This document shows, in pieces, positions 29,601 through 32,600 of a stretch of 64,000 bases of DNA. This DNA comes from Escherichia coli. GTDB taxonomy: Bacteria > Pseudomonadota > Gammaproteobacteria > Enterobacterales > Enterobacteriaceae. The stretch lies in assembly GCF_017348835.2 (NCBI RefSeq), contig NZ_CP071375.1. The stretch is one strand, 5' to 3'. The position numbers were made by a program. The stretch's first letter is position 1; the number at the start of each line of letters is the position of its first letter.

Positions 29601-32600
29601 TGCGTTGCAGAAAGTCGGCAAATAATTAACACTTTGTCTCCTTTAGTGAAAATTTTTCCTTCTTCAGGCTCCAGTAGTAAATAATGTATTTGGCCAAATT
29701 GATCGGTGAGTTTTCCTTCGCAGGGATTACCTGAAGTGGCTTGATGACCGGTAATTAATGCCATGCTACCAATATATTCTTCTTCTGTAATAGCTGAACT
29801 ATGGTCGCGTGGAATCCAGGGCGCAACTATTTTACCGGTATAATGCACCGCAATAATCGTAAACAGTAAACTGACAGGAACCACGAACAGGTTCGACAGT
29901 GGTGATTGCCAGACCATGATGCAGGCATGCTGCAACAGGATGCCAATAAGACCAAAAAAACCAGCCAGCAAGCAGAGAACGACGAGAGCTGGCAATCTTC
30001 CGATATTGAGATAATGAAGTGCCTGGCTAATATGACCTGTGGTTATGGAATCATAATGGTCAAGATGTGCATCAAGAGCACCGGAGAGCATGTGACCGCA
30101 GATAAGCGCTAAAATTTCTAAAAGGCCGATCAACAGTACAAAGGAAATAGCGAAAAGATAAGGGGTATTATAGTCGGCGAATAAAATCATATGTCACTCC
30201 AATGTCCATTTAGTGACGCAATATTTACTTTGGGATAGTTTCCTTGCTTACATTTATCTTTGTTAATAATAACACATGTTAGAGAAGTTCTGGAAGAGAA
30301 AGTCTTTTAATATGGTTTTTTTATTTTTCACTAAAAAGTGTGATCGGGGACAATATATTTACGCACGTTATGTTTAAAGGCACTACACTGATTGGGGAAT
30401 ACTGAAATCAGAAAAAGCATATGGCCTTAAAAGGTATGCGATAACCGGAGGATGTGCTTATGGATCATAGTCTTAATTCTTTAAATAATTTCGATTTCCT
30501 GGCGCGTAGTTTTGCCAGAATGCACGCAGAAGGTCGCCCGGTCGATATTCTGGCCGTTACTGGTAACATGGATGAAGAACATAGAACCTGGTTTTGCGCA
30601 CGTTATGCCTGGTATTGCCAACAGATGATGCAAACCAGAGAACTTGAATTAGAACACTGATATTACGGGCCGTCTGGCCCGTTTTTGTGTTGCTTTATTC
30701 TGCTTTATCAATAGGCGGGATAGCCGGAGGAGATTGAAGATCTGCTACCGAATTATTGCGCGCCTCCAGTTCACTGATGCGCTGCTCCAGTAACGCCAGT
30801 TTTTCACGAGTCCGTAACAGGACTTGCGTCTGTACGTCGAATTCTTCGCGGCTCACCAGATCGAGACGCGTCAGCTGCGCTTGTAGGGTTTGGCGGATTT
30901 TTTTCTCCACATCTTCCCCGAACTCCCTGATTCCTTTAGGCATTGATTCGTGAACCTGGCGAGCGATTTGCTCAATTTTTTTCGGGTCAATCATTGTAGT
31001 TTCCCTGTACTGATAGGTGTTGAGTGCCATTGTAGTGCGATAAGGGTAAGTCATAAACCAGAATTATGTGAAGCTATGCGTTGCTGCCGCTAATCATTAG
31101 CGTTATAGTGAATCCGCTTATTCTCAGGGCGGGGCGAAATTCCCCACCGGCGGTAAATCAACTCAGTTGAAAGCCCGCGAGCGCTTTGGGTGCGAACTCA
31201 AAGGACAGCAGATCCGGTGTAATTCCGGGGCCGACGGTTAGAGTCCGGATGGGAGAGAGTAACGATTCTGTCGGGCATGGACCCGCTCACGTTATTTTGG
31301 CTATATGCCGCCACTCCTAAGACTGCCCTGATTCTGGTAACCATAATTTTAGTGAGGTTTTTTTACCATGAATCAGACGCTACTTTCCTCTTTTGGTACG
31401 CCTTTCGAACGTGTTGAAAATGCACTGGCTGCGCTGCGTGAAGGACGCGGTGTAATGGTGCTTGATGATGAAGACCGTGAAAACGAAGGTGATATGATCT
31501 TCCCGGCAGAAACCATGACTGTTGAGCAGATGGCGCTGACCATTCGCCACGGTAGCGGTATTGTTTGCCTGTGCATTACTGAAGATCGCCGTAAACAACT
31601 CGATCTGCCAATGATGGTAGAAAATAACACCAGCGCCTATGGCACCGGTTTTACCGTGACCATTGAAGCGGCTGAAGGTGTGACTACCGGTGTTTCTGCC
31701 GCTGACCGTATTACGACCGTTCGCGCAGCGATTGCCGATGGCGCAAAACCTTCTGATCTGAATCGCCCTGGCCACGTTTTCCCACTCCGCGCTCAGGCTG
31801 GTGGTGTACTGACGCGTGGCGGTCATACTGAAGCAACTATTGATCTAATGACGCTGGCAGGCTTCAAACCGGCTGGTGTGCTGTGTGAGCTGACTAATGA
31901 CGATGGCACGATGGCGCGTGCACCAGAGTGCATTGAGTTTGCCAATAAACACAATATGGCGCTTGTGACTATTGAAGACCTGGTGGCATACCGTCAGGCA
32001 CATGAGCGTAAAGCCAGCTGAAAACCGCTGCTTAAATTACTGCCTTAATCAAGAAACCGAAGTTGTAGCAGGCTTCGGTTTTTATTTTTCCCTGCTATGC
32101 AAGATGTTAATTCCGCTTCTCTTTCTATGAGAAAATTTCATTAATATCAGGCATTCTTTTTCATTATGATCAAAATCATATAATTGTTCCGTTATTATGC
32201 GACCATATGAATATATCCGAAAAAGGATATGTGAAATTTATGCGCTAAATGTTTAGTATTGTTAAATATTAAGGGTAAAAGGATGTTTATCGCCTGGTAC
32301 TGGATTGTATTGATTGCTCTGGTTGTGGTGGGTTATTTCCTGCATTTGAAACGTTATTGTCGGGCGTTTCGCCAGGACAGAGACGCACTGCTTGAAGCGC
32401 GGAACAAATACTTAAACAGTACGAGAGAAGAGACAGCCGAAAAGGTAGAATAAGGCTTTCGTGAAGCTGGCAGAAGTTGTCCATGCGCTGGACAACTTCT
32501 GATGTTGTTTTTAACCAATTCCCGCCGTTTGTAGCAGCACTAAACTGAATCCCATCACTGACATTCCACATAGTACGCCATAGCTGGGGTTATTATTAGG

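Follow-up and report, generated by a model that had tools for sequence, protein, structure and literature searches.

The element described here has its closest counterpart in the FMN riboswitch of Escherichia coli K-12 ribB (RF00050; the locus is also known as sroG), with which it shares its sequence, its gene context on the ribB side and all of the published numbered bases. Control by this riboswitch is dual, i.e. FMN blocks the initiation of translation and triggers Rho-dependent termination (PMC11571811, PMC5499598, PMC10085680), the first of these studies being that of Eschbach et al. 2024. On nascent transcripts P1 and the sequestering stem are protected by FMN, and the sensing window closes at a pause near nucleotide 247 (PMC11571811). 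Direct binding of FMN to nascent transcripts of identical sequence is characterized by Kswitch values of 57–176 nM (PMC11571811), and ribocil binds the E. coli aptamer with a KD of 13 nM (PMC5056776). In a rho mutant the control of ribB mRNA is lost, and the Rho termination score is 3.1 (PMC5499598). In a purified system the ligand raises termination by Rho, the rut site being exposed when ligand is present (PMC10085680). The literature places this ligand-exposed rut within the ribB riboswitch.

The RFN element of Bacillus subtilis ribD (ribDEAHT) belongs to the same aptamer family and has the same ligand, and there too FMN stabilizes P1 and the genes are turned off (PMC11571811). Its expression platform is an intrinsic terminator/antiterminator, whereas E. 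coli ribB uses sequestration of the start site and Rho, with no intrinsic terminator. The TPP riboswitches of E. coli thiM, thiC and tbpA likewise control translation, with co-transcriptional sensing windows, pauses near the start codon and coupling to Rho, but they differ in aptamer and ligand; in thiM Rho acts indirectly after the block to translation, while in ribB rut is exposed directly (PMC5499598). The Mg2+-sensing leader of Salmonella mgtA also exposes rut in a ligand-dependent manner, leading to Rho termination within the leader (PMC5499598, PMC10085680), but it has a different sensor and ligand and contains no FMN aptamer.

Here we analyse the ribB leader in a window of 64,000 nt of E. 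coli DNA (NCBI RefSeq assembly GCF_017348835.2, contig NZ_CP071375.1). All coordinates refer to this window, and the features of the leader are collected in Table 1.

RESULTS

The FMN aptamer and its gene context

The first-pass annotation, made from the sequence alone, had placed an FMN riboswitch controlling ribB at 31110–31367, to be checked with a covariance model. Scanning the whole window (cmscan, Rfam 15) gave a match to the FMN model RF00050 at 31116–31264 on the + strand that extends over model positions 1–138 of 138. The score was 120.9 bits against a gathering threshold of 66.2, with an E-value of 1.1e-27 (search space: all 64 kb and 4227 families), and one non-standard pair was flagged. 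The aptamer is thus where it had been predicted, as a full-length match far above threshold. The ribB coding sequence (31368–32021, + strand, 217 aa; from ORF reading and the annotation of K-12 and O157:H7) lies directly 3′ of it, with 103 nt between the 3′ end of the aptamer and the ATG at 31368. The aptamer is therefore in the 5′ leader of a riboflavin gene on the same strand, as in the family. We are almost certain that this is the FMN riboswitch of E. coli ribB, whose 252-nt 5′ leader (31116–31367) acts in cis and represses in response to FMN according to the dual-control model; nothing that we found speaks against this identity. The limits first proposed were nearly correct, starting 6 nt upstream of G31116 and ending at the base before the ATG; the sequestering helix continues for 9 nt beyond. 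Three small ORFs overlapping the leader (31186–31320 and 31277–31417 on the + strand, 31198–31344 on the − strand) were rejected as mechanical calls without support.

From the promoter through the leader to nt 300 of ribB, the sequence is 100% identical to that of E. coli K-12 MG1655. There is no mismatch over 31055–31669, and the first difference, at 31670, is inside ribB. Published results on the K-12 ribB riboswitch therefore apply to the copy in the window, and FMN binding, the block to translation, the dependence on Rho and the pause sites are taken here from the literature. With ribB directly downstream, and a sequence identical to that of the riboswitch characterized experimentally in K-12, the assignment of ribB as the controlled gene is sustained. 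The element itself does not differ from that of K-12, but the gene context does further upstream, beyond ubiK, where K-12 has ygiL-yqiG. Of 5426 complete E. coli genomes searched, 5425 contain a segment of 346 nt around the leader, 5390 of them with at least 99% identity.

The element had also been called well known, as it is, having been described in K-12, and had been said to be missed by ORF-based annotation. The latter is true of pure ORF calling, and the MG1655 feature table examined has CDS features only at the locus, with no FMN riboswitch entry. It is not true of PGAP, which reports an FMN riboswitch in RefSeq E. coli; in O157:H7 PV15-279 the RefSeq/PGAP annotation 'riboswitch / FMN riboswitch' stands at exactly the Rfam coordinates.

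Numbering, transcript start and promoter

Published position n corresponds to window position 31115 + n. The anti*-P1 helix of nucleotides 141–149 with 175–183 (which has only two G-C pairs, and includes G149:C175), the pauses at C175/G176 and U181, and the GCU initiator trinucleotide used for transcription in vitro (all from PMC11571811) fit this register alone, so that +1 is G31116. In the same register C33, G37, G93, C100, C111, U218 and C219 (PMC5056776) each have the stated base and lie in the stated helix. Placed from the published +1, the promoter hexamers are probably TTGCTG and TATAGT, separated by 17 nt. The ribB promoter was not listed in a sigma-70 consensus scan because TTGCTG has only three of six consensus matches; the two hexamers together score 8/12.

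Table 1. Features of the ribB leader and its surroundings in the window
Feature	Window position	Leader nt	Strand	Basis
Probable −35 hexamer TTGCTG, ribB promoter	31081–31086		+	Sequence reading; 17-nt spacer to TATAGT
Probable −10 hexamer TATAGT	31104–31109		+	Sequence reading; 7 nt upstream of G31116
Transcript start, 5′-GCU...	31116	+1	+	Published numbering
FMN aptamer (RFN element), helices P1–P6	31116–31264		+	RF00050 match; same coordinates annotated by PGAP
P1 5′ strand (partner 31255–31262)	31118–31125	3–10	+	cmscan structure line; pairing in 92.2% of cells over 40 leaders
Anti-P1 5′ strand UCAGGGCGG (predicted to pair with 31323–31331 without FMN)	31124–31132	9–17	+	Best duplex between 5′ end and platform
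P1 3′ strand	31255–31262	140–147	+	cmscan structure line and 40-leader alignment
Anti*-P1 5′ strand AGAGUAACG	31256–31264	141–149	+	PMC11571811; unconstrained MFE
Platform hairpin CGGGC-AUGG-ACCCG	31272–31285	157–170	+	Conserved, covarying
C-rich, G-poor stretch, probable rut region	31286–31335	171–220	+	Composition
Anti*-P1 3′ strand CGUUAUUUU, with pauses C175 (31290) and U181 (31296)	31290–31298	175–183	+	PMC11571811
ACUCCUAAG box, putative function	31313–31321	198–206	+	Conserved across Enterobacterales
Anti-P1 3′ strand CUGCCCUGA	31323–31331	208–216	+	Duplex search, alignment; 4-nt overlap with sequestering 5′ arm
Sequestering stem 5′ arm CUGAUUCUGGUAA	31328–31340	213–225	+	Folding, numbering, 40-leader alignment
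Shine-Dalgarno GAGG, in loop of sequestering stem	31354–31357		+	Sequence
Pause region, 3′ border of FMN-sensing window	31362–31364	247–249	+	Mapped from PMC11571811
Sequestering stem 3′ arm UUACCAUGAAUCAG, start codon and codons 2–3	31363–31376	248–261	+	Folding, alignment
Terminator-like hairpin and T run after ribB stop	32052–32083		+	Consensus scan only

Sequestration of the translation start site

For comparison 120 loci were retrieved from a species-representative genome collection by a plain DNA pattern for the 3′ part of the aptamer, and 39 of these have ribB directly downstream. With the window they gave an alignment of 40 leaders, which includes many Enterobacterales, a Vibrio, Pleionea, Thalassospira and a Desulfobulbaceae MAG. 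The FMN-bound (OFF) structure as a whole is 93.0% paired in this alignment, compared with 39–55% when the partners are slid.

The sequestering hairpin consists of 13 pairs and a bulged U31369, with a free energy of −14.4 kcal/mol as a local hairpin. Within it the AUG is paired at its A and its G, and codons 2 and 3 are paired throughout. A sequestering structure had been expected before the start codon; it is present, but the helix holds the AUG and the following two codons. A weak inner helix is predicted between the Shine-Dalgarno region and AAUUUU (31345–31350), and is 70–80% paired in other leaders.

The sequestering helix is 98.1% paired in the 40 ribB leaders, with six pairs invariant, and both arms are almost invariant in the 39 other leaders. 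The sequence GCCCUG(A/G)UUC is found in 40/40, AUGAAUCAG is equally invariant, and ACCAUGAAUCAG is unchanged in 39. The single A-to-G change in the arm retains pairing both in the sequestering helix and in anti-P1. Codons 2 and 3 (AAU CAG) carry a synonymous change in none of the 40 sequences, while every one of codons 4–20 varies; to judge from the alignment, this invariance is the clearest sign of constraint at the RNA level on the start region of ribB. The substitutions U218C and C219U (31333 and 31334) in the sequestering arm confer resistance to ribocil without an effect on binding (PMC5056776), and nucleotides 215–227 are accessible to RNase H without FMN and protected with it (PMC11571811).

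The helix may tentatively be extended into codons 4–6 (nucleotides 204–206 with 268–270 and 210–211 with 264–265). These positions are 89% paired, against 75.5% for a slide of +1, and where both partners have changed the sequences are those of distant taxa that align poorly. Pairing of ACUCCU with GAGG (31354–31357) as an anti-Shine-Dalgarno was considered and, on inspection, rejected; no more than four contiguous pairs form in any E. coli register, and the flanks of the Shine-Dalgarno sequence are unconserved.

Helices that compete with the aptamer

Anti-P1, a stem that is named in PMC11571811, is 98.1% paired in the 40 leaders. For anti*-P1 the figure is 87.8%, and at two of its pairs both partners have changed. 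The platform thus contains pairing that is mutually exclusive with P1 as well as pairing that covers the start region, both seen mainly as conservation with few compensatory changes. As far as the alignment goes, the support for the sequestering helix and anti-P1 is conservation and not covariation, and the platform hairpin is the exception. In that hairpin 73.7% of cells are paired, and four of the five pairs show changes on both sides (nine cells in total), which was reached by 1 of 500 shuffles. The published pauses at 175 and 181 follow its 3′ end by 5 and 11 nt respectively, and the stem-loop may serve as the pause hairpin for both.

We note a further conserved sequence, the ACUCCUAAG box, that has C/U-rich equivalents at the same place in distant taxa. 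Its CUCCUA (31314–31319) can pair with UGGGAG (31250–31255) of the invariant aptamer core, as a direct extension of anti*-P1. The MFE structure of the window sequence contains this pairing, and its two aligned segments are 97.5% and 87.2% paired. The MFE structures of 15 of the 39 other leaders, including Thalassospira and Pleionea, show it as a full or nearly full match, and there is a partial match in one further leader, that of Desulfobulbaceae. We tentatively suggest that the box could be a third anti-aptamer element, pairing through CUCCUA with UGGGAG when FMN is absent, although we consider it rather more probable that it is not. If it is, this pairing together with anti*-P1 would create a three-way structure of 15 pairs, with the hairpin 31299–31309 as its third arm, and would take apart the binding core as well as conceal the C-rich stretch for Rho entry.

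The authors of PMC11571811 regard the role of the inter-domain region as uncertain. In their RNase H profile the signal goes from ~94% at nucleotide 195 to ~13% at nucleotide 214, similarly with and without FMN, and this neither proves nor excludes the UGGGAG:CUCCUA pairing. In the riboswitch literature examined we found no description of this pairing or of a pause-hairpin role; the pairing is possibly the only undescribed detail of the riboswitch.

Folding energetics

Minimum free energy folding, unconstrained or constrained, failed to separate the leader cleanly into ON and OFF states. The MFE structure of the full leader (−88.1 kcal/mol) contains neither P1 nor anti-P1, and retains the sequestering hairpin. 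Forcing P1 gives −80.8 kcal/mol and forcing anti-P1 gives −84.2 kcal/mol, the latter at a cost of about 4 kcal/mol. The MFE is not below that of shuffled sequences (z = −0.20). Across the 40 leaders the sequestering hairpin is predicted in 37 and P1 in none, so that thermodynamic folding alone is not useful as a test.

Anti-P1 and the sequestering stem overlap by four nucleotides, and a sequestering hairpin shortened by this overlap retains a folding energy of −6.3 kcal/mol. Kinetics or additional pairing must therefore be needed for the start site to open. The 3′ strand of anti-P1 would be made about 40 nt before the 3′ arm of the sequestering stem, giving anti-P1 a head start if its 5′ strand is free. 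Taking together this head start, the overlap, the cost of anti-P1 and an MFE structure that lacks both P1 and anti-P1, we infer that the order of folding must be kinetic.

The role of Rho and alternative explanations

The inter-domain region is where rut is probably located, as suggested by base composition. In windows of 30 nt, C reaches 12 against 5 G at nucleotides 191–220; on the aptamer's 3′ side the composition is the opposite, with C minus G down to −10. A second stretch with C over G occurs in the first codons of ribB (nucleotides 251–280). Its presence would suit a different version of the same riboswitch, in which Rho termination is merely the indirect result of the block to translation, with rut exposed in untranslated ribB mRNA, as has been proposed for E. 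coli thiM in contrast to ribB (PMC5499598). Similarly, the accessibility of nucleotides 180–214 to RNase H is much the same with and without FMN (PMC11571811), which fits poorly with a rut that is simply open or closed there. Against this, ribB has been classed as direct, and Rho termination in vitro depends on FMN or ribocil when ribosomes are absent (PMC5499598, PMC10085680); moreover, the C-rich nucleotides 171–220 are exactly those covered by the ligand-free helices. The ligand-dependent termination obtained without ribosomes, using ribocil-C (PMC10085680), already disfavours an indirect action of Rho, and we regard it as unlikely.

Direct action of Rho also has to be compared with attenuation of the Bacillus type, in which binding of FMN would allow a Rho-independent terminator to form in the leader. 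Pedrolli et al. 2015, as cited, is in favour of control at the transcriptional level, and the platform hairpin is followed after 5–6 nt by a run rich in U (CGUUAUUUU) that has a greater length in other enterobacteria. However, a terminator scan found no intrinsic terminator on the + strand over 31116–31367. The leader does not have a G+C-rich hairpin followed immediately by a U run as in B. subtilis ribD; the stem at 31272–31285 is short, at only 4–5 pairs, and is separate from the U run, which is a strand of anti*-P1. The literature assigns the transcriptional effect to Rho (PMC5499598), and attenuation by an intrinsic terminator is very improbable.

A last alternative is that the leader mainly yields a stable trans-acting small RNA, with cis control of ribB secondary. 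The name sroG is used for the locus in several papers, and premature termination would release a leader-derived fragment of ~150 nt; an RNA of about 150 nt derived from the leader was reportedly detected by Vogel et al. in 2003. We know of no target in trans for SroG, and literature searches found none. With cis control accounting for all the conserved features, and all 19 ribocil-resistance mutations working through ribB expression (PMC5056776), we give this idea the least credence of all.

DISCUSSION

That the aptamer is present, that the leader is identical to that of K-12 and that the helices exist and are conserved is observed in the sequence; the mechanism that follows combines these observations with the published data. 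When FMN is plentiful, riboflavin synthesis is lowered through the ribB leader. FMN binds the six-helix aptamer during transcription, locking P1 (31118–31125 with 31255–31262). As P1 then retains its 5′ strand, the switching sequence CUGCCCUGAUUCUGGUAA (31323–31340) is left free, and once the initiation region UUACCAUGAAUCAG (31363–31376) has been transcribed the two pair, burying the AUG and placing the Shine-Dalgarno sequence in a closed loop, so that ribosomes cannot start. The ligand-bound fold also exposes the Rho entry site, and Rho terminates within the leader or the early coding region.

When FMN is absent, the 5′ strand of P1 would instead pair with 31323–31331 (anti-P1) and the 3′ strand with 31290–31298 (anti*-P1), and possibly the core UGGGAG would also pair with CUCCUA (31314–31319). 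With the aptamer taken apart by these competing helices, part of the sequestering arm occupied and the C-rich stretch covered, ribB would be both transcribed and translated.

The ribB FMN riboswitch was already known, and its presence here brings no new biology. For a genome scan it is a positive control, i.e. a structured RNA recognized from sequence alone. The comparative data add small refinements only: the invariant codons 2 and 3, the conserved ACUCCUAAG box and the covarying platform hairpin. The riboswitch controls the committed step in riboflavin synthesis in E. coli, that of ribB, and is a validated antibiotic target, since it is bound by ribocil and all 19 of 19 resistance mutations are within it (PMC5056776). 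It is also a model for co-transcriptional sensing of a ligand and for the control of Rho by a riboswitch.

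Genomic setting of ribB

Going upstream from ribB, the sequence of E. coli K-12 MG1655 is collinear with the window as far as approximately 30700-30750, near the 3′ end of ubiK. Beyond ubiK the two differ; MG1655 carries ygiL and the fimbrial gene yqiG, the latter interrupted by IS2, whereas in the window ubiK is followed directly by glgS, yqiJ and yqiK, as it is in O157:H7 PV15-279. The two tandem RF00113 copies (see table) are the antitoxin RNAs of type I systems belonging to the sib/ibs group.

Small ORF and RNA features of the window (RF identifiers are Rfam 15 matches found with cmscan)
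Feature	Position	Strand	Remarks
tRNA, anticodon CAT	6732-6807	-	single; predicted tRNA-Met (ARAGORN label), either elongator tRNA-Met or possibly a tRNA-Ile carrying lysidine
naRNA4 (RF02564)	19134-19204	+	REP-derived nucleoid-associated RNA; 79.3 bits
SIB RNA (RF00113)	27124-27273	+	first of two tandem copies; 141.0 bits
SIB RNA (RF00113)	27500-27649	+	second of two tandem copies; 147.7 bits
Short hairpin	31272-31285		between FMN aptamer and sequester stem
YqiD	32259-32453	+	small ORF downstream of ribB; annotated small membrane protein

The ribB leader in E. coli

A riboswitch feature is present between ribB and ubiK in PGAP-annotated genomes, while the RefSeq feature table of MG1655 (NC_000913.3, 3181500-3186500) has neither a riboswitch nor an sroG feature there. 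Complete E. coli genomes were searched for the leader, and just one of the 5426 lacked a match. One of the places found in this search is on a plasmid.

Conserved elements downstream of the aptamer

The stem of the short hairpin undergoes compensatory changes among genera, the pairs being CGGGC/GCCCG, CAGGC/GCCUG, CGAGC/GCUCG and UGAGC/GCUCA. Its 3′ end lies 5 and 11 nt upstream of the published pause sites at nt 175 and 181 (window 31290 and 31296; PMC11571811).

The helix that covers the ribB AUG (31328-31340/31363-31376) also includes codons 2 and 3. These (AAT CAG, 31371-31376) are the same in 40/40 aligned ribB leaders, drawn from several bacterial orders, and in the same alignment there is synonymous variation at every one of codons 4-20. 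The riboswitch helix constrains the coding sequence of ribB at codons 2 and 3.
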